A stretch of DNA of 64,000 nucleotides from a virus, in IMG/VR virus record IMGVR_UViG_3300025131_008220, positions 1 to 64,000 of that record; one strand, written 5' to 3'. The notes beneath the pieces were generated by a model that ran no database searches, was not told where the DNA came from, and saw nothing but the letters and a program-made list of their open reading frames with translations. The number at the start of each line of letters is the position of its first letter. The first letter of the stretch is position 1. Made by a program: the position numbers and the translations under genes. This document shows positions 34,195-64,000 of this stretch, one piece after another.

Positions 34195-34223
34195 ATTATA
34201 ACAAGAACATGATCAATTGTCAA
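34195..34223 (-). promoter_or_regulatory. Perfect sigma70 promoter
   Basis: TTGACA-N17-TATAAT, 9 nt before ATG 34185. Confidence 0.85.
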
Positions 34224-35093: not shown

Positions 35094-35158
35094 ATTTGTC
35101 TTGCTTTACTTAAGCTAACAAAAACTTATCCACTTGTCAAGTCTTTTTTAAATCTTTT
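35094..35158 (-). repeat. 65-bp promoter cassette, copy 1 (inverted relative to 48245..48309)
   Basis: 61/65 identity by manual alignment. Contains TTGACA-N17-TAGCTT. Confidence 0.85.
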
Positions 35159-38867: not shown

Positions 38868-38894
38868 ATAAAAGAGGATTCCGCAAGCGGAATC
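38868..38894 (-). terminator. Intrinsic terminator-like hairpin ending the putative ncRNA
   Basis: GATTCCG-CTTG-CGGAATC followed by CTCTTTTATT. Confidence 0.6.
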
Positions 38895-39217
38895 GACGTA
38901 GCTTTTTTGCTGAGCACAGTTCACCCAACTTACAAAACACTTAAAACGACTACGAAAGGACGCTTTCGCTTCCACTTTAGTTCTATTCGCAGGGACTTTC
39001 TCCTTTTCGGCCCGCACATACGAGCCTAGCTAATGACTTTCGCAACCTATACCAAGTGTGATTAAAAATGGTAGAACTTTTTTAAATGATCACTTCCCTC
39101 ATACGCCGCCTGCACCCGCTTGTAGCGTACCTTCCAAGGTTCGAGAAGCCCCTTCGGGGTTGTTGGTCTCTCAAGAGTTACCAGACTCGCTTTCGCTTAG
39201 AACCATTCTTCACACTT
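38868..39217 (-). ncRNA. Putative ~350-nt structured non-coding RNA or leader, family not recognised
   Basis: Perfect promoter upstream, a 5' long-range helix, several GNRA-capped hairpins and a terminal hairpin. No convincing ORF. Confidence 0.65.
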
Positions 39218-39222
39218 TCTCT

Positions 39223-39251
39223 ATTATAAATTTTACTTGACTTTCTGTCAA
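39223..39251 (-). promoter_or_regulatory. Perfect sigma70 promoter (leftward)
   Basis: TTGACA (39251-39246), N17, TATAAT (39228-39223). Confidence 0.88.
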
Positions 39252-43173: not shown

Positions 43174-43202
43174 TTGACAAGCGCATAAGACTAAGGTATA
43201 AT
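43174..43202 (+). promoter_or_regulatory. Perfect sigma70 promoter
   Basis: TTGACA-N17-TATAAT, 9 nt before ATG 43212. Confidence 0.88.
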
Positions 43203-43211
43203 TATTAAAGT

Positions 43212-43757
43212 ATGATTCAGTTCTATAAAGCAAACCCGAAGGTGTCAGGAACAGCCTGTTCTTTTTCTGTCAACCCTAAAGACAAGTCCGTATACGCCAG
43301 CTTAATTAAGCAGAAGAGTTGGGACGATAAAACGAAGACAGGTAGGTTTGATGCCGACAATAAGTGCATCACTAAGCTAAACACAATGGAGCTAGGCGCT
43401 CTAATCAACGCTATTGATACGAAGACAGACTGGTCAGCTTATCATGGAACTCAGACAAGAGCGACTAAGATGAATTTTTCCCCATACTCCCAAGGGGGCA
43501 ATGAAGGCTACAACTTCAGAGTAACCGCTGACTCTAAAGAAGACTCAGAAAAGAAATCCACCTTCTCGATGGGCTTTAGATACGGAGAAGCAGAGGTTCT
43601 GAAGAGATATTTTATCTTTTCTATGAACGCTATCTTCCAAGCCTCCCTTGAAGAGGTTCAGGCCTCACTAAGCGGAGCCAAGAAAGGCGGCTACAATAAG
43701 CCTCAAGCAGCCTCCGCGCCAAAAACAGAGGACTCGGACGAAGAGGTTGTTTGGTAA
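43212..43757 (+). CDS. Putative single-stranded DNA-binding protein (Whirly/PC4-like, tentative)
   Basis: Beta-rich body, flexible linker and acidic C-terminal tail EDSDEEVVW. Confidence 0.5.
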   Translation: MIQFYKANPKVSGTACSFSVNPKDKSVYASLIKQKSWDDKTKTGRFDADNKCITKLNTMELGALINAIDTKTDWSAYHGTQTRATKMNFSPYSQGGNEGYNFRVTADSKEDSEKKSTFSMGFRYGEAEVLKRYFIFSMNAIFQASLEEVQASLSGAKKGGYNKPQAASAPKTEDSDEEVVW

Positions 43758-47544: not shown

Positions 47545-48255
47545 ATGTCTATAGATCAAAAAACGTTTCAAAGAAACGAAGCAGGGCTTTTAGTTAAACC
47601 CCCAATTGACTACGTATTCAACGAAGACGGCTCCGTTGATTGGAGAAAAATGGTCAGGACAAGCTTTTTAGTAGCCAATAAACAAAGGACAAACCAAACC
47701 GATGTATCTCAACTGGAAGACAAAGACCTACTTATTCTGCTGGGAGGCATTAAAGAGCTGGCTCAAATTAGAGGTTTTACCCAAGTGAGCTACAACGTGG
47801 TAGCCGCAAGCCAAGAGTATTTTGCGACTAGCTGCACTATTGAATGGTTACCCAACTACGAAACTAATAACCTCTCTTCGACGTTCTCTGCTTTAGCAGA
47901 CGCACACCAAGATAATACGTATAGCTTTGCCTGCAACTTCCTAGCAGCAACGGCGGAAAACAGAGCTTTTGTTCGGTGTGTAAGGAACTTTCTCAGGATT
48001 AACGTCGTTGGCCAAGAAGAGATGGGAGGAGGCCAGAAACAATCAACCTTCACTCAAAAATCTTCTGCCGCAAAGACAGACTCCAATCCCGCCACCCTAT
48101 TAGAAAAAGTTATGGACACAAAGGGGGTATCTTTTGATATGGTCAAATCTCGTTTGCTGGAAGAAGGCTTTAAGAAAGCAGAGTCGTATGATTCAATTAA
48201 AGACATACCTAAGACTAAAACTTTTGAACTCATAGCTAGACTAAAAAAGATTTAA
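47545..48255 (+). CDS. Putative Rad52/Rad22-like single-strand annealing protein
   Basis: AATAENRAFVRCVRNFL.I......EEM resembles the AETRA..RA.R helix of annealases. Tentative. Confidence 0.5.
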   Translation: MSIDQKTFQRNEAGLLVKPPIDYVFNEDGSVDWRKMVRTSFLVANKQRTNQTDVSQLEDKDLLILLGGIKELAQIRGFTQVSYNVVAASQEYFATSCTIEWLPNYETNNLSSTFSALADAHQDNTYSFACNFLAATAENRAFVRCVRNFLRINVVGQEEMGGGQKQSTFTQKSSAAKTDSNPATLLEKVMDTKGVSFDMVKSRLLEEGFKKAESYDSIKDIPKTKTFELIARLKKI

Positions 48256-48309
48256 AAAAGACTTGACAAGTGAATAAGTTTTTGTTAGAATAAGTAAAGC
48301 AAGACGAAT
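48245..48309 (+). repeat. 65-bp promoter cassette, copy 2
   Basis: TTGACA (48263), N17, TAGAAT (48286). 61/65 identical to the reverse complement of 35094..35158. Confidence 0.85.
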
Positions 48310-48500
48310 TTCCTCTCTCGACGGAGAGAGGTCGGTGTGACGGAACAATCCCTCCCAAAGGGGTAACGTAGCGACTGCGAGAAGTACAGAGACCAATCGG
48401 TTGAGAAAAATCGCGGGTGAGTCCGAAGTAAGTAGATCTGAAACATTTGTTTTCTGGGTACTGAAAAGGTGCGGGTACACAAATACTCCCGCCACCATTT
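48297..48500 (+). ncRNA. Putative ~200-nt structured non-coding RNA or leader, family not recognised
   Basis: Follows a consensus promoter, is GC-richer than its flanks and has at least five hairpins. Confidence 0.55.
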
Positions 48501-48508
48501 ATTTTAAT

Positions 48509-48772
48509 ATGGATTATGAAGAGCTGTGCAAAGCATTTAGAGAAGAAGAGAAGATGAAGACAAAACATTTACAAAAGAAGGCCGCGAAGAAAAAGGTCAC
48601 GCGAAAGGTAAAGCATGATAAGATTGTCATGCGGGATCATGTTCGGCGTCAACTGATGAGGGACGTCGAGTATCAAATCAAACACCTTCGGCAAAGAAAC
48701 GCAGCCGATTGCGATGTTGTTGCATTCATCAACAAGAAGTACGCGCAGATACGACAAATAATGTCAGAGTAA
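48509..48772 (+). CDS. Small basic protein (87 aa)
   Basis: ATG 48509 MDYEELCK..., with a Lys/Arg-rich N-terminal half. Confidence 0.65.
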   Translation: MDYEELCKAFREEEKMKTKHLQKKAAKKKVTRKVKHDKIVMRDHVRRQLMRDVEYQIKHLRQRNAADCDVVAFINKKYAQIRQIMSE

Positions 48773-49132
48773 CTACCACTTACCAATAGGGCAAGACTCC
48801 TCAGCTAAATAAACCTTCAGTGGAACAACACAACCGCACTCAGCGCATCTTTGGTTTTCTTTAATAAACCAAGCGCACCCGTGGCATATAGCGGTCCTTT
48901 TCTCTATTAGGGACATTTCCGCTTTTATCTTCTTTCCGGCCACTAAAGCCTTTGCAGTTTTAGAGAGACTCTTAGCTAAGTTAGCCGCCATCTCCTTCTT
49001 GCTGGGGAGCTTCTTTTTGTCCAGCTTTATAAAATCTTTTTTTAAAGAACCCCTTTTTCTTCCAGAACTATTCGTTTGAGTAGACCCAATTGGTTCGATA
49101 TAAGACCCTCCTGAAAAATTTTTTAAACTCAT
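48773..49132 (-). CDS. Cys-rich DUF6171-like protein
   Basis: R..IC..C...C.ECGC...K......CP.GKW. Confidence 0.7.
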   Translation of the reverse strand: MSLKNFSGGSYIEPIGSTQTNSSGRKRGSLKKDFIKLDKKKLPSKKEMAANLAKSLSKTAKALVAGKKIKAEMSLIEKRTAICHGCAWFIKENQRCAECGCVVPLKVYLAEESCPIGKW

Positions 49133-52100
49133 TTTTTTAAATCAAAAACCAGAGGATCGTTGCTAACTTTTAATGTTTTTATTTGTCCCGGGTAGCAGTA
49201 ATGAATACAAGGCCCCATGTATGCCGTCTTTCCGTACCCCTTTATGCCTTTTCTAACGGCATACAGATACTCGTTAGCGCCGTAAACAGCCATAGCCAAG
49301 TCAAACTCAGGCTCAACCTTAAAAGTTCCTTTCGCGGGAACTTGTACAATAGAAGATGACTCCGCATAAGTCTCTTGAGGCCCTATGACATCATCTCCCT
49401 CACTTAAATCAAACAAGTCTTCATAACTATGGGTAACATTGTAGGTGCTTGAAGCTCCACCTTCGCAAAGGCTATGCCTTCCATTTCTTTTATAAACTTC
49501 CCCTATTTTAGTCTCTTCACATGTAGACCTACCCTCTACAAGGGAGCACCTTAGCTTAGATTCCTCTGGTCTATATTTTTCCTTTAAGCCAACAGGCAGA
49601 CTCCTAGTGAAATCTGGAGAAGCAACAACTTCATACTCAGTCCAAACCTTTACTGTTCTTAAAAACGCGGATAAGAAAGGCTTATCTCTGGTCTGACAAC
49701 CAAAAACTATTTGATTGGAGTACCCAGCCCTTATATATTCAGAGCCCCTTATATCAACCAACACGCCACCTTCAACCGGATCAAATTGGGTGCCATCAAC
49801 TGTAGAATTTCCTAAAGAGGAGTCTTTAACAGGAGGGCGTAGAGGCCAAAGCTCGCTGCTTACATCAAATACCTCACTTTTGTAAACAAGCTCTCCCCCG
49901 TAGGCGTAAGCTCTTCTGTTAATTGGGGTAGGCAAAGGGAGACCTTCTGTTTTAATAGGGTGATCGCCATACTCCATGGGAGGATTACAGTAGACACCCA
50001 ATTTCTTAGGTATATTTACATTATTTGGCAATCCAATACTCTTAGGAGTTCTAGGGTCATCCTCATCTTTTTTGAATTTCTTGGCCTCTGGAGTATCTCT
50101 TAACTCTTCGTCTACATCTTCCCATATCGGGCTTCCGAGATCAGCGTCGTAGTCTGTTATATTCTTAAGATCCCCTGAATTACCCCCATCACTTTCGAAC
50201 GCAGAAAAATGAGCCACTTTAACTTCATTGGAGTCGGGATCAAGATAAACTATATAATTTATTCTAGACTTGTTCTCATAAGTTAAATAATCATATTCAT
50301 CATCCCCCATACCCCAGCTGGAATCGGCATCCCCTGCAGAATCGAGATTTGGAAAGGTCAGTCCAGCCATATCTGGATTATTTATATATCTATATTCAAC
50401 CTGACTGAACCTCCTTACCTTTGCATATAAAGGAGCTTCTACTCGTATTTTATGCATAAAGTTAACAGCTCTAGCGTAAGTATTGAAAACCTCTGCAGTA
50501 ATAGCAGCTCCCGGCAATATACCAAAAGACTGAGGCAAGGATGGGTTATCCTCCCTAGAGAAAGAACTTATCCAAGGAGTCGTCTTACTAGCTATTTCGT
50601 TGTTTACGACCCTATACTCTACTATAGATGAGTTATTCGCTAAAGCCCAAGCTTCTCCGGGATCAACGTCCGGATAAACCTCATACTGAATGAACGGCTT
50701 ATCACTTCCGGGCTGATACTTAACCTCTACAGACCTGTTGCTAACAGAAGAAGAGTCCGTCTGGTCCTCCTGAAACAAGCCATCTACATACTCATTCTCT
50801 GTCCCCTTTATTTCCGAAATCTCGTCGGGCATAGATCTTCCATAATTCTGAGAACCCTTTATTTGTTCTATAGAGGAAGTAGCAAAGTTTTTTATTTTTA
50901 TAATCCTGTCGGCCTGAGCCTGTATGTCTCCCCATTCTTTATCATCTTCCGAGGAACCCTTCATAAAATCAACAGAGCCCCTGTTGACACTTTCACTCAA
51001 CTCCTCGTACTCTGTGTAATCAGCTATTTTCTCTGTGTCCTCATAAGTCAACCCGAACTCTTCCTGCTCTTCCTTAGGTAGCGAAGACTCGTTTCCTGTT
51101 ATAGTTGCTTTATACAGCTGCAAACCGGGCACATCGGTAATTGATATCCGGTCAAGACCCCTTTCTTTATTAGGGGAGCCAGCAAGATTAGCTATCTTTA
51201 AGTTATGTATAATGATAGGAGTCACATCAGATCTATACTGCTCTACTTTAACTGTCTTAAGTCCATCAACATCGGCATAGCCAGTACCAGCATTGATTAC
51301 TTCTATAAATTTTAATTTTCCGTTTTCTATTATGGAGCTAGCCTGAGCTTTCCTAAAGTGAGACGGCTTTTTATCTGGTTCTGCTATTGAGATAGTCGGA
51401 GGAGTCCTATAATTATCTCCGGAATCACTTATCATAACCTTAGATATGCCCCCTCGATTAATAGGGTCTTTATAGTTAGCCCTCATATTATGTTCTAAGT
51501 TAAACATATACAGCCTCGAGCAAGGAAGGGTTAAGTCTACGTTCCTATTATGTTTTTTAAAATCAAAGGTTCCGAACTTAACCAAACCACTTTCCGGAAA
51601 AGATACCGACTTCTTGATGTCAGGATTTTCAACCATACTCAAAGAGTGCTGGTATAGATCTATTTCTTCGTTAAGTACACCGTCTCCAGACAAGTCTGAG
51701 TCATATATAATAGACCTCCACTTGAAAGGTAGCCTCATTGGAGATATTTGTTTTTCTTTAGACTGCCATAACTCTTGGCTATCTTTGTCTTTATAGCTTA
51801 TGTCTACGCCAGTTATGACTATCCTATATTTCTTACTGGCGTCTATGCCCTCCCTTTCTATGGAAAATTTGTTCCCTTTATGGCTTAAACCCTCCTCTAC
51901 ACTGCTCCAACTTACCCCATCAGAGCTATTTTCTAAGTCGTAGCGAATGCGAACTGGTTTAGTTCTCTGCTTCTCTTCTAATCCCCCAAAGCCATCTGCA
52001 AAGCCATCCCAAAAATCAGTAATATGAAAATCTAAACTACTGCGCCCCGGAGCGACATTAACATAAGGATATATATATTTACATACCGCAGGCATACCCA

Positions 52101-55100
52101 TATCGAAAAACAAATCTGCAGTAAAATCTTTACTAGAAGATATAGGAGCGACATGTTCATCAAGCCTTGAAAGCCCTGAAGCAGTAAGTTGTTCACCCTT
52201 CTGGGAGTTAGATAGAAGTGAGGCGTGACCTTCTGTGTCGTAAGACTCATAGACTTGTTTAAATTGGTCTCTGAACCCCTTATTTAACATAGGTATTTGA
52301 TAATCAAAGTAAGGGGAGCCAACTAAATCTTCCCCATTGTCCCCATCTGTCTCGGCAGGATAATCAATGATACAATCCGCTTCCTCAACTATACATAGAT
52401 TTTCAAAAACTTTATTTCTCAGAAAGTTTCCGGCTGCCCCCACTGATTTAGATGTTCGGGCCTCTGGCCCAAGCGTTTCTGGTGTATCTTCGGCAACATC
52501 ATAATTTAAAACAACCTTCAGATCCTCATTTGTATTAAAGATCACGCCAGAAGTACTAAGGTTAAGCAGAGGATCATCTTCATTGAATATAACGCTACCA
52601 TTTAAAGTAATAGATTTAATATCACTACTCTTCTTATATATGTATCTGTATCCTTGTTTAGTATTTAACTTTATATTCAATGTTACAGTTTTATCAGAAT
52701 CAGAATTTGTATAGCTAACTCTTTCTATTTGAGTATTAGATCTATATAATAAATTTTTCCAAGAAGAGAATATATTAAAACTTTCACTTGTCCAATGAGA
52801 CGCCGGAATTGCTGTATAATCAGGATCCAACCCTGTTACTGTTCCGTAGCCGAGGCCGCCGTAAGTTTCTCCATGCCAGTGCTTAGCTGCGGTAGAGAGT
52901 TCTAAATTAGCCCTTATCTTATTCCCATCTAAGACATTATTAGTTGCCCAAGAGTCTACCCTCTCGCTGGATATTTCACTAAGCGGTGGCTCTAGATAGA
53001 AAGTCCTAGACCCTATCACAATTGGGGAATTTAATGAGGTTACAGGGCTGTCAGAATCAGGTTGTCCGTAAACGGAGTCATCACCAAGGCAAGATTTTAC
53101 AGATCTATAAGTCCCATCGTCTTCTGTTTCTAGATCAAAATAATTTACCACCTTAAATACTTGACCGGGTAATTCATTATTTGGATCAGCAGATGACACA
53201 GTATCCTCTATATCCGCATCCACCTTATTAAAGGAATCAAGATTTGAGTCTGAGCTAAATATTTTTAATAAAGTTATAGTATTTTTTGTTTCGTTACCGC
53301 TAGTGGCCTGACTAGTAACCCTAGCAAAATAAGGCTTACCGCCAACTATGGAGCCTTTGCTATTTTTAAATACAATTGCGTCTCCATTTGAAATTGCTCC
53401 CCTAATTACAAGCTGGTTACTACTTAAATAGGCGTCGCCTTTATCAGAACTAGTAGCACCTATGGTCCTCCAATTTCTATTTTCACCAGAGAACCTCAAA
53501 ACCCCTCCCGGCCTATATATATCGTGGTAAGATATAGAGCTAACCTCTGTGTCTAAATAATATTTTAACCCAGCAGTCTCGCTCTCATTAGTTAGATACG
53601 AACCTATCTGATAATCTTTCTTTAGATTTTCAAATACAAGCTTCCTCTCCGTAAGCTTTTTAAGCCTAAGCCTGATAGCCTTGTAAGCCTGCTTCCCCTT
53701 GGATGTGTTATAAGAAAGGCCAAGTTGCTCCCTCGTGTCACCACCGTTGATGCCGAAAGGAATAAAAGAATAGCCTTGATGATTTTTTAAACTTTTTCTT
53801 CTGTCTCTTTCTGCTATAGCGAGAGTCTTTGTTATACCTGAGTCATGAGTACCCCCACCTTCTCTCATCGCATATTCCTGACCCTCATTAGTGTTAAAAT
53901 CAAGATTTAAACTGCTTATAGTTCCATCTGCTACAAAAGGCAAAGAGTCTCTGGCTCCTAAAGAGATAGACAACACGACTTTACCTGTATTATTAGTAAA
54001 AGACAGGCTGCTTTTTATTTCGTATTCGTATCCGGGGCTATCTATCTTGTTGTCTTCAAACTTTACCCTAAGCACGTAGTCTTTGTCAGTAGAATTATCT
54101 TTGTTTGTCCACGTGACGTCAGAAAAGCTTTCAGAAAAATCCAAGTCTGGATCTTTTGGTATTTTAAATTCAAAATAATCCTTCTTAAAAGCGCCTTCTA
54201 TATCTTTTAATTTTTTGCCTTGTATTAGTTCATAAGAGGCTCCATTAGCTACTTTGTTACTAATCCTGCCATTTAAGAAATTCTCTTTTTGATAATCTTC
54301 CGACACCTTGGTCCAAGTAGGATCAACGTAATCATCATCTTCAGTCTTGTTAGCTATCTCCTCGTTTAGAGCTTCAGTCTCTTTTTCTACTATATCTTTT
54401 ATAGCCAAATCCGACTCATCAACTCCTTCTGCTTTAAATAAAGAAGCTTTCACTACTGCGAAATAATTATAATGTATTTGATAGTTTTCCTTACCTGCGA
54501 CTCCTATAAATTTTTCTCCGGGCCAGTAGCTTTTGCCATTATACCAAATTACCGGAAAGAATTCCTTAGACACTACATCGGTGTACTTATGTGAGCCGTA
54601 AGCAGTGCCGCCCGGTGCACCCCTTACGGCTGTTGGAGCAAAGTCGTACTTTACAGGAACAGTCTCATCCCCAATCTGATAATATCCATCGAAATCTTCT
54701 AGTATGTAATACTTGCCACTCTCTATACCAGAGACGGTAACTAACCCTGTTCTTTCGTTAAACTCCTTGGAGTAACAGATTCTTTCGTGTCCAGTACTAA
54801 TGGAGTAGCCTATTGTTCTTGCTGGCATATCCCAAGAGATCTTAAGGCCATTTAATATATAATCAGACGAGTCCTTATCGTAGTAAATCTCCTTGCGTTC
54901 GATGCCATAGTCTAATAGACTGGAAGCAGAGTCCTTCTTATCTCCATATAAGACCACGCCAAATTTATAGGGATTGTCGAAATTGCTAATAGACTCGTAG
55001 CCGGAAAGCCCATCACTCTCTATAAACGGCGGGGAAGGCCAGTGAAGATTAGTCCTAAATATGTTGGAAAACTTATATCTAGTCCCAACATAGTTAACAT

Positions 55101-58100
55101 TAAAAGACTCTTTCTTTTTAATAATCCATTCTGCGTTTTGTTCTTCTTCATTAAAATAATTTGGATCTTTTTGTAAATGAGGAATATGAACATCTTTCAA
55201 GCTAATAAACCAATCTCTTCTATTAAACCTTGGACATAGATTATAGTCAAGCTCCTCTGAATTGGTAAACGCAGTTTTTTCTGATGAGTATATTTTATTG
55301 ATTTTTCCGCCAGCTGTAATATTGACGGCTTTACTGGAGGCATTTATTATCTTTAGCCCATCAACAGTTCCCGTATACTCTATGTCTGCTGGCTGAGTTA
55401 TTACGGTTACTTTGTTCTTAGTGCTTATAAAATGTTTTGGCCTAAGCATGTCTATCTGCCGTCCCTCTAGCTCATCTTCAGTTAGATCATCAACCATCAG
55501 AGCTCTCATAGATTTATTAGCAGGCAAAGACCCCACTCCATCGGATTCAAAATCCTCTATTCTTAATTTATTTTCAAATATCCGGCACTGACTATTAGAT
55601 ATGTTACCTATCAGAGTGTTATCTTTTTTAGCCGAGTATATGATATCAAAGGGATCTTTAAATATTACTATTTTGCCGTCATAAAATGGTTTATTTAAAT
55701 AAAAGTTTTTATAAAGAGTCGTCTCTTCAAAGGCTGCATCTCCTCCTTTCGCTACCTCAGTATAGCTTTGTAGTTCTGTTACGGTTGGATCACCTGTTCC
55801 TTCCTGAGCGCACGAGATCATGATCTTGCATTTAGTGGAGCCAGTTAATAGGTCAACTTCGTAATCGTTTTCATCCCCTCCCATGTCTTTGAAATTATTA
55901 TCATTTGAATCTAATTTTCTTAAATTGACAGGGCTCCTGTCTTTATTGTACAGACAAAATTCAGTTCTCTGATCGTGCTTAAAGATATAATCATAATATC
56001 TATTAGATAAAACAACCTTGTCTTTAACAGACTCATCTAATATAAACTCAAACATGTTGCAAACAGGAATCTTTATTTCCATTTTGCTTGATAAAGATGG
56101 ATCAAATTTTACTGGTTTTGAATGAGATATATCTATCCTATCATCATACTTATTATATAGAGCATAATTAGTACTCCATTTTTTGAGCCTAGATAGATCC
56201 GGAGTAAAACCACCTCTTTGAAGCTTTGAGTCAACGCTTGACCAAATGATAAGCGGCACAAAAGTAGTAGTAAAATAAGCATCGTCCGTTACGTTGAATG
56301 CTTTTACGTTTTCAGCGTCAAAAAGAACGACTTTATCCTTGTGAATTGAAGCTGATATCTCCACAGCTCCATCTTTTAAAGTGTGCAGCTTCACGTTTCT
56401 GTTGTCGCTATCTATAATATAATTTTCTGACGAGTCTACTTTAAAATCACAGTAAGCATAAGCAGGTATAGCATAGGTAGATGCCCCTTCTATTGTCTTT
56501 GAGGCATTATAGTTTTTAACATGGAAAGGGGACTTGCTGTTGTTTATTATTTTTATAGAACCAACATCCTTATGTATAGCTAAAGCCCCTGAAACTGAAT
56601 TTTGCTTCGAAGTTATGAAAACCCCAGAGTCAGAGGAGAAAATAGCATTACTTAAAGTAACCACCTCTACACCATCATCGTCACCAGTCACATCACTAAA
56701 GGCACCATCGCTATACTTGATCTTTTTAGCTGCCCCCGCAGCAATAGTAGCATTAGCAAACACAGAGGCCCCCTCAGGACAAGAGAGAACGGATGAATTT
56801 CTAGAAGCATTCACTACCGTAAAATAGATATTATTAAGTTCGAGCATATCCTGCCTAGAAGGTAAAGAGATGTTTTGTTGATCAGCAAAGACATGTTTAA
56901 ACGTTGACCCTTCTGCGACGCCGATATCCAAAGACACAGACTTCTCTTTTAAAAGACGGACATTAGAGCCTATCTTTCCGTTCTCGTCTTTTGTATCATT
57001 TAGCGTTATCTGATACGGGTTATACTCATTAGCTAGCGGCTGCATCTTATTTTCGTCATCAAAGAAAAACCCAAAAGGCCCGGTAAAGCTACCTAATTCG
57101 GAAGTCATAACATCTTGTATGCCAAGACTCAAGACTTTATTTTTATTTAAGTAGTTAGCAGTATCAGTCTGCGATATATATGGCGAGCCAATGCCAAAGT
57201 CGGCATCCCCATCCAAACTTAACAAATAGTAACCCTCTTCCTCCGTCTCCTCAGGAAAGTACGATAAAATTTTAGCAGCTATTGAGTTTTTCTTATCGTC
57301 ACTCAGATTGTTAGAGCCAGCATCTACAGCAACGACAGAAGATATTTTGATGTTTTCATAAACAGTATTTATTATATTTATGTTGCTAACGTTTTCTGCA
57401 CCAAACCCAACAATCTTATAATATTCACTATCAGAAGTCAAATCTATCTCTTCGTTTTTAGATAGCGTATAGGCTTCTTCAACAAGAGACTTTAGGTTTA
57501 TCTCTTCTGCATCTGACGAGGTTATTTTATCATAATAAACATATAAAGATAAAGAGAGCTGCTTTCCGAACACATGATAGTCTATGGAGCTATCTAAAGA
57601 CGTAGAAGAGTGGTTTATGTTAAAGACTGACTGTTCGTCGTCTACAGCAGATATATGCCTAAAGTAATAAGGGTTGTCGTCTGGGTAAACACTAAAGTTA
57701 TCAAGCTCAACAGAATACGCTACCATGGGGTGAAGCTTGCCGTCCCTATAAAGTTCCGACTCTTCGTTAAGGTCACTAACAATTCCCGGATTATATGAAT
57801 TATCGTCTCCTTCCACGGAGATTAACAAAGAAGACGTAGATATATTTGCTATTTGAAAATTAAAATATTCTGAGGCGCTGATTGGCCTAAAGATTTGATT
57901 TTCTCCAGTCCCATTTAAATAATGCCCTGATCCATCCGCCTTATATAAGTAAGGACGCAAGAAATTAGGCTGGCTATCTACAACTATCTTCTTTCCGTTG
58001 TGAGTATCGTAGTCAAGAATTATATCTCCCTCTCGGGATATGCTGTACCTATCTCTCTTACTTTTTGTTTTTTCGTAATTACGATATAACTTTCCGTCGC

Positions 58101-61100
58101 TAACTATAACAGAATCAGAACTTAAATAAAATCTATAGCCAGATACAGAATGGTACAAGCCGTCGTCTTCGTCTTCTTTCAAACTACCGTAAAGGGAGTA
58201 GGCAGTATTAGTCGTTGATAAGTCAGCATTAGATATAACTAACATAGCGTTAGCGTTAACCACCACAGAAGCCGTTCTAGAGAAGTTCCTTGCCGTTATA
58301 GGCATGTTGGTCATGTTAACAACAGCAACCTGCTTTAAATTAGTATAAGCGTCAGGCAATATTATTTCTCTATCTTCATTATATTCTTCGTCTTCGTTTG
58401 GAGTATAAAATACAAAGTTTAACGCTTGCTTAGTTCCCCCTGCAGGGGTATACGTGAATTGACTTTGAGCGTTATCTATTCCTAGATTTGCTCTATCTGG
58501 AATATGTATTTCGTTTTTAGGGTAGTATATAACATCTCTATTTGCTACGCTTTGGTCTTGCAAAGTGAAAGCGCCATTACCGTCATGTTTGTAGGCTCTA
58601 TTTTTAAGTAAAGTATCAGTGCTGCTATCTTGTGTGTTTTTAATGGTAACTGAATCTAAACCGCCATTAATAAAATAATCATTATCAAAGTCATTGTCTG
58701 TTAAAGCAGCTTGAGCAGTAAACACTCCACTTGTTATAATTTGATTTTTACTAGCTGCCGCAGCTGTTGCTTTATTTATATCCAAACTATCAACTGAGCC
58801 ATCTAAACCAATCAAAGTATGGACCCCAGAGAAAGCTAGACCTCCTTGAGTATAAGAGCCGTCAGAGGCACTGAATAGCTCCACAGACTCTTTGTTGCCT
58901 AAAGAGCTGACAATAGTAGAGTCGTCAGAGTAAGCTTTTATATTTTGAGAACCGCCTAAGTTTATTATTGAAACCTTACCATAGTCTAAGGCATCTGTAT
59001 AAAAGGTCTCTGAGAAGAATGTATAGTCAGAAACACTGGCATAAGTAACTGGGACAGATAGAGCCTTATCTGAGTATAAAAGGAACTCGTTTTCATTTAC
59101 TACTTTGACAAACAAAGTTTGAGTCATTAAGTCTGCTTCGTCTACGTCTGCATCCAGAGCCGAGCCAGCAGCAAAAGTAAAAGGTATAGAATTTGATGTA
59201 GTCTTTGCAGTAGCGGCGCTGAGACCATTAGAGTATAAGTCGTATATATTTCCAGCCCCTACAGGAGTTCCCCCCGACTCCTTGTTAGAACCCACTCCAA
59301 TCCTTATAAACATTTTCCCAGCTTCTAATGGCCCATTCGTATCCCACTGAAAAGTGTAATAATACTCATTAAAAGTACCAATTAAAGGCTCCGGTATAGT
59401 AAAATAGTCCTCGACCAAGTACCTATAGCTTCCATCGGTCCCATTGTCTACATATCGAAAATATGTATCTGATTGAGTGTCATAAACCAATAAAGTATCC
59501 CCTTCTGCTATGCTGTGAGAGCCTATAGTTCCATTAAAAGTATCCTTCGCTGAGTCCCAATCAGAAGTTTCAAAATAATAATCAACCAAAGTCAACCTAT
59601 CGCACGGGAAGACCATTTTATGATTTGTAACAAGACCATGATTACTTAAATTAAACTTATTGCTCCCAGTAAGAGAAACCTTAGAGAGCTGGAATGCCTC
59701 ACCTTCTGATGCTGGCGCATATTTATTAACCTTACCCTCGGAAAAGAAAGATCGCAAGGCCACGTTACTTAAAGAGCCGTCAAGAACAAGAAAGTCCTCA
59801 TCACTCAAAGCAGGGGAAGAGAAGCTTTCAATAGGGGTGGTTCGAAAGTTATCGTAGTTAGTAGCAATCTCTACGTCTTCGTCTTCAAAATAATCATAAG
59901 TTGACGCGCTAAAACCCTCCAAGGAGTCCATGGTAACGCTAGTTATATCACTGTTATCACTTATAGCCGCAGCTGGGTACAATACGTTCGACAGGCTTTC
60001 GGCCGCGTTTACAAACGTTAAAGCAAAGCCCCTGTTGTAGTCAAAATCAGTTAGGTTTGTCTTCAAAGTAGGTAGCTCGACAGCAAATTCTTCATTTCTA
60101 CTTATCAAAACTCTTTCTTTTGCATCACTTGGTTGATTAAACTTATATTTATTAGAATTTTTATTCTGTGGGTCGGCCCCAATAAACTCTACATAGAACT
60201 TGTTTTCTCCCCCTGATCCTTGCCCTATGATATGCGAGCTTTTACCAACCCTCACCAAGTCTTTATTAGATAAATTATCTACTACATACCTATGGAAACC
60301 CGAGTCCTCTTGGTCATTAAATTTATATACATTGTCTTCTGACTCTAGGTCATACGCCAAGGTAGTGCTAGGATGAGCAGAGATAAAGAAAAACTCAAAG
60401 TTAGTTGGGTAAGTGTCTTTTTTAAATTTAAGTTGTATTTTTTCTGAAGAGCCAGAGTAGGAAAAGATTTTTCCGTGTGACCGAGAGTCTATTATAATCT
60501 GAGAACCAGTTATAGCACTTATGTTAGTAAAGGACCACCCATAGGATTTCTTTTCCACCCTTACTCCAATAACACCCGGGGGAGCGCTATACTCTAGATG
60601 GCCGTCAATAAAAATTCTCATTGTAGGGGTCCTTTCGTCCCTTAGAAAATCAAAGCTTATATCGTTAACCTGAGATCTTACGACGCTGAAATTAAAACCC
60701 TCGGTAGTGCTATCAGAATTTACTCTAACATCCACATCCTCATTATGAATAAATACCTCTTTATTGTCTGATGACTTTACATTTAATTGATTATATCTGA
60801 TCACCTCTATGTTGCTAGTTGACCAGTTTCGTATAGTTTTTCCCCCGGACTCAGACTTAGAACAAGTAAATTTTCTAGTAGTTTGCCTAGGTATATAGTC
60901 AACTGATTTTGAATCTATTTTATAGCCCGACTCAGATACAACCTTTATCTCGTCATCTGTAGCGTTTAAAAACGATACATGCTCGCCTCCTGCAAAGCCG
61001 CTAGGCAATACAAGAGTGGAGTTAGTATCTATAACGCCTGTTATGTCGACATCGTTTTCGGTTAATACTATCTTGTCATGATCAATAACTATAACACCAG

Positions 61101-64000
61101 AATCAATATGATTGAGCCTCTGGGCAGACGCATTGTAAGACACTCCAGACAAAGACCCTAGGCCATCACGGCCAGCTATACCATCAACCAATGAGCAATC
61201 CCCAGTAGAAATATTTACCAAAGTGCACGCGCTATCTATATTTGAGTTTGATACAGAAACCTTGCTTACGTCCTCCACTAAGACCAGACTTTCATCAATG
61301 TCTTGTCCTACTTTGGCATCTGGCAGAACTGTAATAACGCCAGAGACTTCGTCCCCAGATGAATCAAAAGAGCCATCAGAATCAACTCTAATGGTTCTTG
61401 CTTTTTCTGTACTAGAAGTAAGAGCCGGTGAAGAGTAAGCCGCGTCTGGGCTATCAAACAACTTAACAGTTGAGGAACCAATATTTACAATATCAAAATG
61501 ATAATTGTTCCCAATAAATATGCCGCTAGCATTTGTACCAGAAACTAAAAAGGTCTTACCTATATCATCAGCAGTAACAGTAAATTCGCCAGTCATCACA
61601 GGGGAATTTAAGAAGTCGTAAGCTGGCTTATAGGAAACACCACTGACCCCTGTCTCAATAGACGAGTCTGATAGGCCCGTAGTAAAGGACGAGCAAGTAA
61701 AATTGATAAGAGACTCGCTAGGAGCAGTATCGTTCGCTGTATATATATCAAAATTTTCTAGCTCGTCTAAATGGCTACCTGTTATAGAAGGGTCATAGAG
61801 GACCTTCGTCTGCCTCGCATCTAAGATTACATTTTCTCCAGTCTTAATTGAACCATGAGATTTCTCGACTCTATTTATTGAAAGACCACTAGGCTTAGGC
61901 CCTATAACACTTTTTACAGTCTCTAAAGAACTAACGCTGCCTCCGTATACCCTCAGGCCGGTCATACCCGCAACCTCATACGGTTTTCTATCTTCTATGT
62001 CAGTATAAGTAACCGTAGAAGTTTTGTCTAGAGCCATAGTTACATTCTCTACTTTAAGCGTGTCACTAACATCGCTGCTAAATAATATACTCTCGTTAGG
62101 GTCTTTATATACTACATATGTGGTATCAGAGTCTAAATGAACAGCTACTTGGTTAGCTTGGTCATAAACAGAGTAGTGTTGAGAATCTAAAGGCGAATCA
62201 ATAGCGCCCTCCATCTGCCCTTTGTCGCCAGCGGCTTTCTGCGTTAAGTCTAGAAGGGTACCAGAAGTAGGTATAGTCACCTCCATGGGCAATAAATTAA
62301 CCTTTTTTAGCACCTGTGTATTAAGAGAGCCATCGGAGATAGATATATTCTGCTTTTTCTTTATTCTAATCTCTATATCCTCAGGCTTATACTTATCCGT
62401 TATGTCGGTTTTTATTATTAAAGTCGGCAGCAGCGTAACATTATCTATGTTGTCGAAAGAGTTTGGTCTTAACCCTTCTAAATCATTATAAAACATTGGA
62501 TAGCCTACATGGCTTTCTGTAGAATCTACATCTGTCCAATTAGAACCTTCATCAATTGAATATTGGAGTTGATAGTCCCAACCAGATTGAGATCCCCTTG
62601 ATTCTTTATGCCCAACATCGCCGACAACAACAGCGTGTTTTGTATAAAGCCTATAAACATATCTAGTTATCCTGAGCCTAGAGGCGCTAGAGTAGGACGC
62701 GCTGTCACTAGATACAAGCGGAATTGTAGACGTATCTTCTCCGCCCTTTTTAGCGAAGCGCATAGACCTCATACTTTTACCTCTATCTAGGAACTCATAC
62801 AGATAAGGAGCCCTTCCTTTATTAAAGTTATCTGTACTACGAGCCTCATCCCTAACGTTGAAAAAATAATTATCCAATACGATTCCGTCAAAAGCTGAGA
62901 TGTTACCGCTAGAGTCTCTGAATATAGGCCTACCTTCATAGTTTTTATTTATATGGGGGTTATTAGGCGCTCTATAGGCGTAGCCCTGCAGATAATTAAC
63001 TAAAGCCCTCGTCCTTGAATCTGTCTCAAGTTTTCCATATTCGTTGGTGCCCTCAGCCAGAGCATCTTGCAGCCATTCATATGCATGAAAAGTGGTCTCA
63101 TCAGACATATCAGCTATATGATCCAGATAGTTGTCAGGAGGACCAACGTTATCAAACTGATTCCTGTTAATGATCCAGTCATTTTTAGCAGACTTTGCTC
63201 TATTGTATTTTAATTTTAAAACTCTGTACCTTATCTTTCCGCTATCTACTTTAAAGTCAGTCTTAGAGTCGTCTGTTGTCTTCCCCTTATGCAAAGATTT
63301 TCCAACATAGAACCTTACTTGATAAAGCTCAGCATTCAGCCCTTTTCCTATTGTTAAGGCCTTAGTAGAATCAAAAGAGTAGTCGTCGTAACCGCATTCT
63401 ATATATTTGAATTTCTCATTAGTTTTAGCATCTGTTTTTAAAACTTGAGCTTCTCCATCTACATATAAACACAATCTATATTCATCCTTACCGGACTTAA
63501 CTTTAGCTAACGCTATATGCTTCCAGCTAGATGTAGCTCCAATATCATGATCCCCTATGACAACTCCAAACGAGTCCCCCTTAAGCCTGACTGTCAACTT
63601 AGCAGAGCTGGGAGTTGAGGCGTCTATGGATAATTTTATTCCATTTTCTCTCTCAAATATAGTCCCAGTCTCAGATGCCGCCTTTATCCAAAACTCTAAA
63701 GAAAACTCTCCGTTCTGTATATTAAAAGATCTATGAGAAGGGATAGATAAGTACTGATCATCTTCACCGGGAAAACTAAAAGCTTTTATATCATCATCAC
63801 CATCCCCATCCCAATCTTCATCTATTAAAGCAATGGCTCCTGCTGATTCCGGATTCTTATTTATGGAGTGCTCTGTTTTTGATGCATCATAAATTCTGTC
63901 TGTAGTAGTGTTATCTATGCCACCTGTGCTTTTAAGTACTAAGCTGTCTGGAGATTCATTAGACAATCCTATTCCTTCGTAGTCGTCTACTATAGCTCCC
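49129..64000 (-). CDS. Giant putative virion (tail/baseplate/fibre) protein of at least 4,945 aa, 5' end outside window
   Basis: Uninterrupted ORF, and the frame stays open upstream of 63966 (GAIVDDYEGIG). LamG-like domain (FSLEFWIK, WKHIAL, LYVDG) and an ISKVMI.DSG..Y..PPTI.I...INAGTGY motif typical of phage structural proteins. Confidence 0.85.
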   Translation of the reverse strand, partial: GAIVDDYEGIGLSNESPDSLVLKSTGGIDNTTTDRIYDASKTEHSINKNPESAGAIALIDEDWDGDGDDDIKAFSFPGEDDQYLSIPSHRSFNIQNGEFSLEFWIKAASETGTIFERENGIKLSIDASTPSSAKLTVRLKGDSFGVVIGDHDIGATSSWKHIALAKVKSGKDEYRLCLYVDGEAQVLKTDAKTNEKFKYIECGYDDYSFDSTKALTIGKGLNAELYQVRFYVGKSLHKGKTTDDSKTDFKVDSGKIRYRVLKLKYNRAKSAKNDWIINRNQFDNVGPPDNYLDHIADMSDETTFHAYEWLQDALAEGTNEYGKLETDSRTRALVNYLQGYAYRAPNNPHINKNYEGRPIFRDSSGNISAFDGIVLDNYFFNVRDEARSTDNFNKGRAPYLYEFLDRGKSMRSMRFAKKGGEDTSTIPLVSSDSASYSSASRLRITRYVYRLYTKHAVVVGDVGHKESRGSQSGWDYQLQYSIDEGSNWTDVDSTESHVGYPMFYNDLEGLRPNSFDNIDNVTLLPTLIIKTDITDKYKPEDIEIRIKKKQNISISDGSLNTQVLKKVNLLPMEVTIPTSGTLLDLTQKAAGDKGQMEGAIDSPLDSQHYSVYDQANQVAVHLDSDTTYVVYKDPNESILFSSDVSDTLKVENVTMALDKTSTVTYTDIEDRKPYEVAGMTGLRVYGGSVSSLETVKSVIGPKPSGLSINRVEKSHGSIKTGENVILDARQTKVLYDPSITGSHLDELENFDIYTANDTAPSESLINFTCSSFTTGLSDSSIETGVSGVSYKPAYDFLNSPVMTGEFTVTADDIGKTFLVSGTNASGIFIGNNYHFDIVNIGSSTVKLFDSPDAAYSSPALTSSTEKARTIRVDSDGSFDSSGDEVSGVITVLPDAKVGQDIDESLVLVEDVSKVSVSNSNIDSACTLVNISTGDCSLVDGIAGRDGLGSLSGVSYNASAQRLNHIDSGVIVIDHDKIVLTENDVDITGVIDTNSTLVLPSGFAGGEHVSFLNATDDEIKVVSESGYKIDSKSVDYIPRQTTRKFTCSKSESGGKTIRNWSTSNIEVIRYNQLNVKSSDNKEVFIHNEDVDVRVNSDSTTEGFNFSVVRSQVNDISFDFLRDERTPTMRIFIDGHLEYSAPPGVIGVRVEKKSYGWSFTNISAITGSQIIIDSRSHGKIFSYSGSSEKIQLKFKKDTYPTNFEFFFISAHPSTTLAYDLESEDNVYKFNDQEDSGFHRYVVDNLSNKDLVRVGKSSHIIGQGSGGENKFYVEFIGADPQNKNSNKYKFNQPSDAKERVLISRNEEFAVELPTLKTNLTDFDYNRGFALTFVNAAESLSNVLYPAAAISDNSDITSVTMDSLEGFSASTYDYFEDEDVEIATNYDNFRTTPIESFSSPALSDEDFLVLDGSLSNVALRSFFSEGKVNKYAPASEGEAFQLSKVSLTGSNKFNLSNHGLVTNHKMVFPCDRLTLVDYYFETSDWDSAKDTFNGTIGSHSIAEGDTLLVYDTQSDTYFRYVDNGTDGSYRYLVEDYFTIPEPLIGTFNEYYYTFQWDTNGPLEAGKMFIRIGVGSNKESGGTPVGAGNIYDLYSNGLSAATAKTTSNSIPFTFAAGSALDADVDEADLMTQTLFVKVVNENEFLLYSDKALSVPVTYASVSDYTFFSETFYTDALDYGKVSIINLGGSQNIKAYSDDSTIVSSLGNKESVELFSASDGSYTQGGLAFSGVHTLIGLDGSVDSLDINKATAAAASKNQIITSGVFTAQAALTDNDFDNDYFINGGLDSVTIKNTQDSSTDTLLKNRAYKHDGNGAFTLQDQSVANRDVIYYPKNEIHIPDRANLGIDNAQSQFTYTPAGGTKQALNFVFYTPNEDEEYNEDREIILPDAYTNLKQVAVVNMTNMPITARNFSRTASVVVNANAMLVISNADLSTTNTAYSLYGSLKEDEDDGLYHSVSGYRFYLSSDSVIVSDGKLYRNYEKTKSKRDRYSISREGDIILDYDTHNGKKIVVDSQPNFLRPYLYKADGSGHYLNGTGENQIFRPISASEYFNFQIANISTSSLLISVEGDDNSYNPGIVSDLNEESELYRDGKLHPMVAYSVELDNFSVYPDDNPYYFRHISAVDDEQSVFNINHSSTSLDSSIDYHVFGKQLSLSLYVYYDKITSSDAEEINLKSLVEEAYTLSKNEEIDLTSDSEYYKIVGFGAENVSNINIINTVYENIKISSVVAVDAGSNNLSDDKKNSIAAKILSYFPEETEEEGYYLLSLDGDADFGIGSPYISQTDTANYLNKNKVLSLGIQDVMTSELGSFTGPFGFFFDDENKMQPLANEYNPYQITLNDTKDENGKIGSNVRLLKEKSVSLDIGVAEGSTFKHVFADQQNISLPSRQDMLELNNIYFTVVNASRNSSVLSCPEGASVFANATIAAGAAKKIKYSDGAFSDVTGDDDGVEVVTLSNAIFSSDSGVFITSKQNSVSGALAIHKDVGSIKIINNSKSPFHVKNYNASKTIEGASTYAIPAYAYCDFKVDSSENYIIDSDNRNVKLHTLKDGAVEISASIHKDKVVLFDAENVKAFNVTDDAYFTTTFVPLIIWSSVDSKLQRGGFTPDLSRLKKWSTNYALYNKYDDRIDISHSKPVKFDPSLSSKMEIKIPVCNMFEFILDESVKDKVVLSNRYYDYIFKHDQRTEFCLYNKDRSPVNLRKLDSNDNNFKDMGGDENDYEVDLLTGSTKCKIMISCAQEGTGDPTVTELQSYTEVAKGGDAAFEETTLYKNFYLNKPFYDGKIVIFKDPFDIIYSAKKDNTLIGNISNSQCRIFENKLRIEDFESDGVGSLPANKSMRALMVDDLTEDELEGRQIDMLRPKHFISTKNKVTVITQPADIEYTGTVDGLKIINASSKAVNITAGGKINKIYSSEKTAFTNSEELDYNLCPRFNRRDWFISLKDVHIPHLQKDPNYFNEEEQNAEWIIKKKESFNVNYVGTRYKFSNIFRTNLHWPSPPFIESDGLSGYESISNFDNPYKFGVVLYGDKKDSASSLLDYGIERKEIYYDKDSSDYILNGLKISWDMPARTIGYSISTGHERICYSKEFNERTGLVTVSGIESGKYYILEDFDGYYQIGDETVPVKYDFAPTAVRGAPGGTAYGSHKYTDVVSKEFFPVIWYNGKSYWPGEKFIGVAGKENYQIHYNYFAVVKASLFKAEGVDESDLAIKDIVEKETEALNEEIANKTEDDDYVDPTWTKVSEDYQKENFLNGRISNKVANGASYELIQGKKLKDIEGAFKKDYFEFKIPKDPDLDFSESFSDVTWTNKDNSTDKDYVLRVKFEDNKIDSPGYEYEIKSSLSFTNNTGKVVLSISLGARDSLPFVADGTISSLNLDFNTNEGQEYAMREGGGTHDSGITKTLAIAERDRRKSLKNHQGYSFIPFGINGGDTREQLGLSYNTSKGKQAYKAIRLRLKKLTERKLVFENLKKDYQIGSYLTNESETAGLKYYLDTEVSSISYHDIYRPGGVLRFSGENRNWRTIGATSSDKGDAYLSSNQLVIRGAISNGDAIVFKNSKGSIVGGKPYFARVTSQATSGNETKNTITLLKIFSSDSNLDSFNKVDADIEDTVSSADPNNELPGQVFKVVNYFDLETEDDGTYRSVKSCLGDDSVYGQPDSDSPVTSLNSPIVIGSRTFYLEPPLSEISSERVDSWATNNVLDGNKIRANLELSTAAKHWHGETYGGLGYGTVTGLDPDYTAIPASHWTSESFNIFSSWKNLLYRSNTQIERVSYTNSDSDKTVTLNIKLNTKQGYRYIYKKSSDIKSITLNGSVIFNEDDPLLNLSTSGVIFNTNEDLKVVLNYDVAEDTPETLGPEARTSKSVGAAGNFLRNKVFENLCIVEEADCIIDYPAETDGDNGEDLVGSPYFDYQIPMLNKGFRDQFKQVYESYDTEGHASLLSNSQKGEQLTASGLSRLDEHVAPISSSKDFTADLFFDMGMPAVCKYIYPYVNVAPGRSSLDFHITDFWDGFADGFGGLEEKQRTKPVRIRYDLENSSDGVSWSSVEEGLSHKGNKFSIEREGIDASKKYRIVITGVDISYKDKDSQELWQSKEKQISPMRLPFKWRSIIYDSDLSGDGVLNEEIDLYQHSLSMVENPDIKKSVSFPESGLVKFGTFDFKKHNRNVDLTLPCSRLYMFNLEHNMRANYKDPINRGGISKVMISDSGDNYRTPPTISIAEPDKKPSHFRKAQASSIIENGKLKFIEVINAGTGYADVDGLKTVKVEQYRSDVTPIIIHNLKIANLAGSPNKERGLDRISITDVPGLQLYKATITGNESSLPKEEQEEFGLTYEDTEKIADYTEYEELSESVNRGSVDFMKGSSEDDKEWGDIQAQADRIIKIKNFATSSIEQIKGSQNYGRSMPDEISEIKGTENEYVDGLFQEDQTDSSSVSNRSVEVKYQPGSDKPFIQYEVYPDVDPGEAWALANNSSIVEYRVVNNEIASKTTPWISSFSREDNPSLPQSFGILPGAAITAEVFNTYARAVNFMHKIRVEAPLYAKVRRFSQVEYRYINNPDMAGLTFPNLDSAGDADSSWGMGDDEYDYLTYENKSRINYIVYLDPDSNEVKVAHFSAFESDGGNSGDLKNITDYDADLGSPIWEDVDEELRDTPEAKKFKKDEDDPRTPKSIGLPNNVNIPKKLGVYCNPPMEYGDHPIKTEGLPLPTPINRRAYAYGGELVYKSEVFDVSSELWPLRPPVKDSSLGNSTVDGTQFDPVEGGVLVDIRGSEYIRAGYSNQIVFGCQTRDKPFLSAFLRTVKVWTEYEVVASPDFTRSLPVGLKEKYRPEESKLRCSLVEGRSTCEETKIGEVYKRNGRHSLCEGGASSTYNVTHSYEDLFDLSEGDDVIGPQETYAESSSIVQVPAKGTFKVEPEFDLAMAVYGANEYLYAVRKGIKGYGKTAYMGPCIHYCYPGQIKTLKVSNDPLVFDLKK

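Follow-up and report, generated by a model that had tools for sequence, protein, structure and literature searches.

In the DNA of an uncultured virus (IMG/VR record IMGVR_UViG_3300025131_008220), a predicted promoter lies about 210 nt upstream of a small gene encoding a basic protein of 87 amino acids (aa), and the question arises of what this long leader contains and how it relates to the gene behind it. The analysed DNA, here called the window, covers positions 1 to 64,000 of the 83.9-kb record, the completeness of which is estimated at 54%. The initial annotation of the region proposed either a non-coding RNA (ncRNA) accompanied by a protein that binds it or a regulatory leader acting in cis; its idea of a selected RNA structure coupled to the open reading frame (ORF) is borne out, but several of the stems that it drew are wrong. 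Comparison with its relatives identifies the RNA, which is approximately 190–200 nt long, as a divergent, uncatalogued subtype of phage manA RNA, its score lying below the Rfam threshold. It can be stated with confidence that the RNA exists, has a fold of the manA type, is homologous to manA and is linked to the protein gene in both directions.

At the gathering thresholds of Rfam, nothing is detected in the 64-kb window. In E-value mode with 4227 families, manA RNA (RF01745) is the sole match at E ≤1 in the 64 kb; it extends from 48314 to 48502 on the plus strand, covers the full model (positions 1–192) and reaches 42.1 bits with an E-value of 1.8e-7, the gathering score being 55.2. The RF01745 model gives 0 matches in 14 control genomes. 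Relatives of the same subtype score 39.4–49.7 bits against RF01745 (E 1e-7 to 5e-10), and the subtype as a whole, at 39–50 bits, stays below the gathering score. The canonical cyanophage manA RNAs used as controls score 121–175 bits (n = 9), and the RNA is regarded as a divergent subtype because of the distance between these values and the 42.1 bits found here. The initial annotation had counted a match to a known family among the outcomes contrary to it, and the RNA is indeed a divergent relative of one (RF01745). The resemblance to raiA-motif RNA that it suggested finds no support, as there is no raiA match at E ≤10 in 48100–48900 or at E ≤1 in the whole window; tmRNA, GOLLD and ROOL, the other families that it had singled out for an Rfam scan, likewise give no match at E ≤10 in 48100–48900, and what the scan returns is the sub-threshold manA match. 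Neither a tRNA nor a tmRNA is found at the locus. An isrD candidate overlapping the promoter on the minus strand (17.4 bits, E 1.1) is dismissed as noise.

The likeness to manA involves both sequence and architecture. Both RNAs possess a 5' hairpin with a GACG loop, followed by a multi-helix junction closed by helix P1. The hairpin P0 (UCUCUC-GACG-GAGAGA) aligns to positions 1–16 of RF01745, and the GA(C/U)(G/C)-type loop directly before P1 is thus present. The junction strands GUGAC.GAA.AA and UAA.GU are common to both; around P2, the consensus GUGaCUGAAUAA + UAAgGU corresponds to GUGACGGAACAA + UAACGU in the window. P1 is recognizable as the 4-bp helix GGUG/CACC with a C-A first pair, the consensus being GGGaG/CuCCC. 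The P5 hairpin and its loop pattern are also alike, with a GGGUA...A.UA.UCCC-type loop before the 3' strand of P1, where UGCGGGUACACAAAUACUCCCGC aligns at high posterior probability. Furthermore, both are phage-borne, marine RNAs of ~190 nt situated in front of a gene.

However, the two also differ. Canonical P3 contains a GGUGGUG element, in a region labelled 'pseudoknot?' in the available text of Weinberg et al. 2010, and this element is absent here; the inner P3 parts of the RF01745 model are skipped or mismatched, whereas the P3 helix itself is present with one inner hairpin. In the register of the model (7-bp base), 5/7 pairs of P4 are non-standard, and another long arm occupies the same place, built from CC/GG, AGUA/UACU and GAAAC/GUUUU with 2 covarying pairs. 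Because it fails the Rfam threshold and two structural features, the RNA is kept outside manA membership proper. That it is real and kin to manA is highly probable on this comparison. In the accessible part of Weinberg et al. 2010 (PMC2864571), manA is a marine motif of cyanophages and gamma-proteobacteria, found in potential 5' untranslated regions of mannose/fructose, nucleotide, ibpA and photosynthesis genes; this subtype is without association with mannose, nucleotide, ibpA or photosynthesis genes, and its downstream gene encodes the unclassified 87-aa basic protein.

The fold that was tested comprises 47 pairs, was written from the manA alignment and consists of P0, P1, P2, P3 with P3a, P4 and P5, all on the plus strand. 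P0 (48312–48331) is a hairpin of 8 bp with a GACG loop, matching the 5' hairpin of manA, and precedes the multi-helix core (48334–48496), which is closed by P1 (GGUG 48334–48337 and CACC 48493–48496). Within the core, P2 occupies 48340–48369; P3 pairs 48372–48380 with 48411–48419 and encloses the inner hairpin P3a (48391–48402); P4 forms a long, three-part arm at 48423–48469; and P5 lies at 48471–48492. The folding energy of the region is not above chance, with a z-score of −1.05 on the plus strand, where 34/200 shuffles fold as well, and of 0.06 on the minus strand; the case therefore rests on the comparison with relatives. In an alignment of 55 distinct sequences with a mean column identity of 94%, 96.6% of the cells are paired and 9/47 pairs have changed on both sides, compared with 3.6 ± 0.9 in shuffled alignments (0/500 reach this number) and 0–2 when the pairing partners are slid by 1–3 columns. 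With three more divergent relatives found via the protein (58 sequences), 96.4% of the cells are paired and compensatory pairs increase to 14/47, as against 5.3 ± 1.1 after shuffling (0/500), a control that ignores the kinship among the sequences, and 0–3 after sliding. These compensatory changes in the manA-type fold answer the covariation check suggested in the initial annotation.

The 14 pairs with double changes are spread over P0 (3), outer P2 (1), P3 (4), P3a (2), mid P4 (2) and P5 (2). Some of them go back to single events, the alignment pairs 70:103 and 84:91 being changed in a single sequence each, 71:102 in two sequences; others, namely 7:18 (five pair types), 83:92 and 125:152, recur in different backgrounds. 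In P5, two pairs switch from GCGGG/CCCGC to GUUGG/CCAAC in 3 relatives. P1 is invariant in the 58 subtype sequences but covaries in the wider family, where its fourth pair switches from A-U to U-A in step across 54 members, with the forms GGGAG/CUCCC in 36 (5 assigned by eye), GGGUG/CACCC in 11 and CGGUG/CACCA in 7. By eye, no convincing loop–loop complementarity with covariation is seen in the subtype alignment. The column pair 50:146 (A-U in 50, G-C in 5), considered as a loop contact, lies in the tip helix of P4, and its carriers probably constitute one lineage.

Measured against these alignments, the stems drawn in the initial annotation differ in quality. Its 5' hairpin CCUCUCUC-GACG-GAGAGAGG at 48312–48331 is P0 itself, in which 3/8 pairs are compensatory (alignment pairs 3:22, 6:19 and 7:18), and its GAAAC-AUUU-GUUUU (48440–48453) within the P4 arm is paired in 99.7% of the cells, with one-sided changes only. 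In the case of CGGUU/AAUCG, two positions are unpaired, in 38/55 and 45/55 sequences, respectively. The supposedly enclosing AGUAC/GUACU is broken in 12/55; U48459 covaries instead with A48434 inside the P4 arm (A-U in 43, C-G in 11 and U-A in 1 of the 58 sequences). The CCCU/AGGG register is broken in 4/55, where the UCCC/GGGG register stays paired. The final stem GGUGCGGG/CCCGCCACC is half correct: its inner 5 bp are P5 and covary, whereas the outer GGUG/CACC never varies and would occupy the CACC that P1 also uses. Taken together, the four stems CGGUU, AGUAC, CCCU and the long final one show 0 compensatory changes, and 500/500 shuffles do at least as well.

The relatives were collected by several searches. 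A pattern on the shared junction and 3' end yields 53 stretches in viral contigs, with a rough chance expectation of ~2; these comprise 44 canonical cyanophage-type manA RNAs, 3 of a short variant called group C and 6 of the window subtype. Ten of the 53, 9 canonical and 1 of group C (49 bits), were scored with Rfam as controls. A subtype-specific pattern yields 102 stretches in marine metagenome contigs, one of which (L078) is a chance match, and the total including the window is 108 subtype loci in 97 distinct contexts. Complete cores are present in 105 of them, corresponding to the 55 distinct RNA sequences. An exact 15-mer search of viral contigs gives 33 stretches, 6 of which are already known as window-subtype loci from the pattern search; among the other 27, the protein-family profile matches three (L179, L189 and L196), and these leftovers are not all chance matches, because L189 shares a contig with L212, where the RNA is found. 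Group C (L043, L048 and L071) is a second sub-threshold manA subtype, with matches of 146–147 nt, a short P3/P4 region, 49 bits in L048 and no small basic protein nearby. Two canonical manA RNAs (L067:563-908 and L046:2597-2955, 123–126 bits) are flanked by tRNA genes with gaps of 0–2 nt; judging from this arrangement, their release from the array would resemble that of the tRNAs. Further canonical manA RNAs have their own terminator hairpins behind them.

The coupling of the RNA to the gene of the basic protein, which the initial annotation supposed, holds in both directions. The profile of the protein family matches 100/108 RNA loci, and the 8 misses are contigs ending 5–77 nt past the RNA. 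In the reverse direction, all loci found by protein (14/14) possess the RNA: 4/4 loci found with the protein of the window have it just upstream, and so do 10/10 loci found with two distant protein relatives (41.3–49.7 bits). The same profile search gives 0 members at 47 other manA loci and 0 at the 15 loci collected around the 236-aa gene nearby. The whole module is also present on L213, a contig of a metagenome-assembled genome labelled uncultured Enterobacterales (GTDB), the only match in 185,579 species genomes. L213 probably stems from a phage and was binned with bacterial DNA, and it provides a weak host hint at most, because it carries phage-like genes (clamp loader, PHROG families).

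The gene of this constant partner (48509–48772 with the stop codon, plus strand) encodes a Lys/Arg-rich, all-helical protein; as the initial annotation correctly read, CCACCA ends at 48497 and is separated by 11 nt from the ATG at 48509, which has no Shine-Dalgarno sequence. Pfam and PHROG contain no family match for the 87-aa protein, and a search of 1.84 billion representative proteins with the family profile (56 distinct members) yields only 17 clusters. Identity to the protein of the window falls to 41–43% within the family set. The residues K17, T18, K19, H20, A25, K27, K29, T31, R32 and K35 are invariant and form a basic N-terminal segment; R46, N64, A65, F73, R82, Q83 and S86 are also invariant. 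The model generated by AlphaFold2 with the family alignment (pLDDT 85) contains four helices, two short N-terminal ones followed by a long helical hairpin. No solved structure matches this model at E 0.001 or better in Foldseek, an Atlas look-up gives no usable match, and no P0014 relatives are confirmed in viral contigs.

Within the module, the RNA is an island of conservation in the alignments. Over the same 55 loci, pairwise identity averages 93.4% in the RNA (lowest value 81.7%), compared with 70.7% in the DNA of the ORF (lowest value 47.6%); the 190 nt upstream average 64.5% (54 loci). The RNA-to-ATG spacing is 11–16 nt in 87/104 scanned loci (1, 22, 21, 25, 1 and 17 loci for 11, 12, 13, 14, 15 and 16 nt, respectively). 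In 11 further loci the distance is 125–152 nt; 5 of these have an ORF of 52–65 aa, cysteine-rich and zinc-ribbon-like, between the RNA and the basic-protein gene, the other 6 have a spacer of 147–150 nt without an ORF, and the RNA is unchanged in all 11. The zinc-ribbon-like ORF (CCECD...CDDCG) is seen, for example, at L059:10826-11023 and also in L074, L096, L163, L165 and L141.

Upstream of the RNA lies a 65-bp promoter cassette (48245–48309, plus strand) with TTGACA at 48263–48268, 17 intervening nucleotides and TAGAAT at 48286–48291. This promoter, noted in the initial annotation, matches 11/12 consensus positions in a promoter scan and carries a TG before the −10 element. Transcription would start at ~48298 according to the promoter position, and the RNA begins ~14 nt past this predicted start. 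The strict pattern TTGACA-N16-18-TANAAT occurs in 4 copies in the window, compared with 0.15 expected. Two of the other three strict promoters (both TTGACA-N17-TATAAT), at 34195–34223 on the minus strand and 43174–43202 on the plus strand, have an ATG 9 nt past the −10 element (34195 to 34185 and 43202 to 43212), an arrangement implying that mRNAs of this phage have no leader or hardly any. The ~210-nt leader is therefore unusual here, as had been remarked. The cassette itself is repeated in inverted orientation at 35094–35158 on the minus strand, 13 kb away and with 94% identity, and this copy stops 4 nt before the ATG of a 270-aa gene at 35090.

Within this framework, the preferred reading, to which about an even chance is given, is that of a stand-alone RNA acting together with a co-transcribed basic protein. 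The RNA would be transcribed from its own sigma-70-type promoter, in a fixed two-part module with the 87-aa gene, and would itself be the functional product. Some transcripts would read on through a weak 3' hairpin and U-tract, yielding the protein from the same promoter. The invariant basic segment of the protein (KTKH..A.K.K.TR..K, residues 17–35) would bind the RNA to form a small ribonucleoprotein, and the particle may be multimeric, by analogy with the reported self-assembly of canonical manA in vitro. Transcript ends, read-through, protein–RNA binding and assembly are predicted parts of this scheme. The stand-alone reading is favoured because conservation is far higher in the RNA than in the gene, because DNA inserted between the two is tolerated and because the canonical relatives of the RNA are independent genes.

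Several points weigh against this reading. On the side of the RNA, the match is below the gathering score, GGUGGUG is missing and the P4 arm differs; its position, 11 nt before an ORF without a Shine-Dalgarno sequence and kept at 11–16 nt in 87/104 loci, is the one expected of a cis-regulator. On the side of the protein, the molecule is a predicted partner, and its fold has no informative match (best Foldseek E 2.3). The terminator-like hairpin, folded in isolation, is weak (−12.6 kcal/mol in this phage, −8.7 in relatives). Close kinship links many of the 108 loci, and some contigs occur in both collections. Contigs from RNA libraries of four studies hold the RNA core of relatives; one of them (X3, 48307–48573) bridges the RNA and the start of the ORF and speaks for the reading, and two reach upstream into the module of the relatives. 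However, these contigs have a low depth (2–6), may include carried-over DNA and indicate presence rather than transcript ends or levels, contig ends such as that of X4 at 48504 being uninformative in this respect.

The most serious rival is a cis-regulatory leader, in which the RNA would act as a sensor and govern termination or translation of the gene behind it, either as a riboswitch or through autoregulation by the protein; it is considered possible, with something under one chance in three. Its strength lies in the fixed short spacing of most loci and in two competing pairings of the invariant CACC. At the 3' end, an extended P5 hairpin (GGUGCGGG/CCCGCCACC, with one bulged C) and the U-rich tract 48498–48508 together occupy 48468–48508 on the plus strand; folded on its own, this hairpin has a z-score of −2.17. 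In a leader, CACC would pair either with the 5' GGUG, giving P1 and the folded state, or with the GGUG before P5, giving the terminator-like hairpin. The two pairings are mutually exclusive, all three strands are invariant in the 58 sequences, and the U-rich tract behind the hairpin is retained in all of them; covariation discriminating extended P5 from P1 is absent in the 55 sequences. The element could be a weak intrinsic terminator, a switch element or an AU-rich translation start lacking a Shine-Dalgarno sequence. Strict coupling to a single gene family also fits a leader, and Weinberg et al. 2010 (PMC2864571), in the part of the text available, rate manA as cis-regulatory and a probable riboswitch.

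The leader interpretation is opposed by the pattern of conservation and by the relatives. Autoregulatory leaders are usually less conserved than the gene that they regulate, whereas here the RNA is conserved at 93% and the gene supposedly regulated at 71%. In the 11 loci with an ORF or a ~150-nt spacer between RNA and gene, direct masking of the start site is ruled out. There is no covarying expression platform in the alignment and no known ligand. Canonical manA RNAs lie between tRNAs, where there is no gene to regulate, or have their own terminators, and a stand-alone RNA therefore fits better than a leader. The two readings are compatible and do not exclude each other.

The genomic context bears on the next rival, in which a stand-alone RNA and the protein have no functional tie and merely share a compact mobile or late-expressed cassette. 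The 5' context of the module is variable: in 75/108 loci the RNA is preceded by ~150–480 nt that are conserved, rich in hairpins and free of ORFs, 26/108 have a different conserved block (..TTGACCGCCATTCAAATCAATTT), 5/108, including the window, have a promoter only and 2/108 are of other kinds; across the 75 and 26 loci, the conserved ORF-free region varies in length over ~100–510 nt. Neither type of block has an Rfam match at E ≤1, and the upstream modules of the relatives are absent from the window and from the entire 83.9-kb record. Since the promoter-only form exists in 5/108 loci, the manA-like RNA and the protein are the indispensable core. The neighbourhood is likewise not conserved, because 0/15 loci found via the upstream 236-aa gene have the RNA within 3 kb; at least 5 contigs with the 236-aa gene but no RNA nearby hold the RNA–protein module elsewhere, and the module therefore moves as a unit. 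The 75-locus region is represented by L005:2170-2647 and occurs also in L003, L004, L213 and most of L074–L175; one of its hairpins covaries (CUGCUG...CGGCAG and variants).

At least 3 unrelated 5' contexts, the movement relative to neighbours (0/15 within 3 kb of the 236-aa homologue) and the 47 other manA loci that do without this protein are all in keeping with a lack of any functional tie. Against it stands the linkage in 100/100 evaluable RNA loci and in 14/14 protein-found loci, which survives both divergence of the protein to ~42% identity and DNA inserted between the two parts, where chance hitch-hiking should break somewhere; the absence of a tie is therefore judged quite unlikely. 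Finally, a protein-coding stretch with incidental structure is put at hardly any probability: open frames exist at 48401–48772 on the plus strand (123 aa, TTG start) and at 48236–48568 on the minus strand (110 aa, minus-strand ORFs over the RNA region measuring 65–110 aa), but these are artefacts because spacings of 11–16 nt in 87 loci and 125–152 nt in 11 loci span all three frames and leave no single frame through the RNA, and the substitutions are paired compensatory changes under a significant full-length covariance-model match.

A bolder extension of the stand-alone reading is a natural RNA–protein nanoparticle, in which the RNA would form closed, pentamer-based oligomers in the infected cell and the 87-aa protein would dock via its basic arm onto or inside the shell. 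In this it would follow canonical manA RNAs in vitro, and it is regarded as rather unlikely. The accessible part of a preprint (Ren et al. 2026, 10.64898/2026.07.01.735769) describes, by cryo-electron microscopy, manA RNAs that form RNA-only 60-mers, decamers and octamers in vitro, built from pentamers joined by kissing loops and with no biological function assigned; a cyanophage genome paper merely annotates manA (PMC9964418). A partner protein is not mentioned in the available parts of PMC2864571, PMC9964418 and 10.64898/2026.07.01.735769, the supplements of which may list this subtype or tRNA-flanked copies. The assembly behaviour of canonical manA is not transferable to the RNA described here, because of its sub-threshold score, the missing GGUGGUG and the differently built P4. 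If true, a cage-forming RNA would here have its first dedicated partner or cargo protein, and manA would gain a biological role.

With regard to the surroundings of the module, the 87-aa gene closes a plus-strand block with genes for an Hsp20, a methyltransferase and two glycosyltransferases (Pfam/PHROG searches). The Hsp20 gene lies ~5 kb upstream of the RNA rather than behind it. On the minus strand, a DUF6171 gene (48773–49132) converges on the 87-aa gene, with adjacent stop codons (48772/48773), and beyond it a 4945-aa ORF (49129–63966, minus strand) is likewise convergent. The phage has no close DNA-level similarity to catalogued phages among 50,697 records. The other structured-RNA candidate of the initial annotation, 38869–39217 on the minus strand of the window, sits behind TTGACA-N17-TATAAT at 39223–39251; it has no Rfam match at E ≤1 and no similarity to the upstream modules of the relatives.

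The function of manA has been unsolved since 2010, and the invariable protein linkage of this subtype offers a concrete handle on it. In the window, the natural construct is minimal: a promoter, an RNA of 190 nt and a gene of 87 codons, lacking the upstream RNA modules of most relatives. The window also shows that RNAs of the manA type occur beyond the T4-like cyanophages.

Among known systems, the leaders of ribosomal-protein genes such as S15 and L10, in which a basic RNA-binding protein is encoded behind a structured leader and can limit its own synthesis, bear a functional likeness to the leader alternative. However, the RNA described here is much better conserved than the protein, the protein belongs to no known family, and the other manA members precede no such gene. 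In the case of OLE RNA, a structured non-coding RNA works with the partner proteins OapA/B/C, and a protein partner is encoded next to the RNA; meanwhile, the RNAs ROOL and GOLLD, which are associated with phages, form cages by self-assembly. The likeness to these three is functional only, since the window contains no Rfam match to OLE, ROOL or GOLLD. Compared with them, the RNA of the present module is much smaller, and its predicted partner is a soluble-looking, basic protein of 87 aa.

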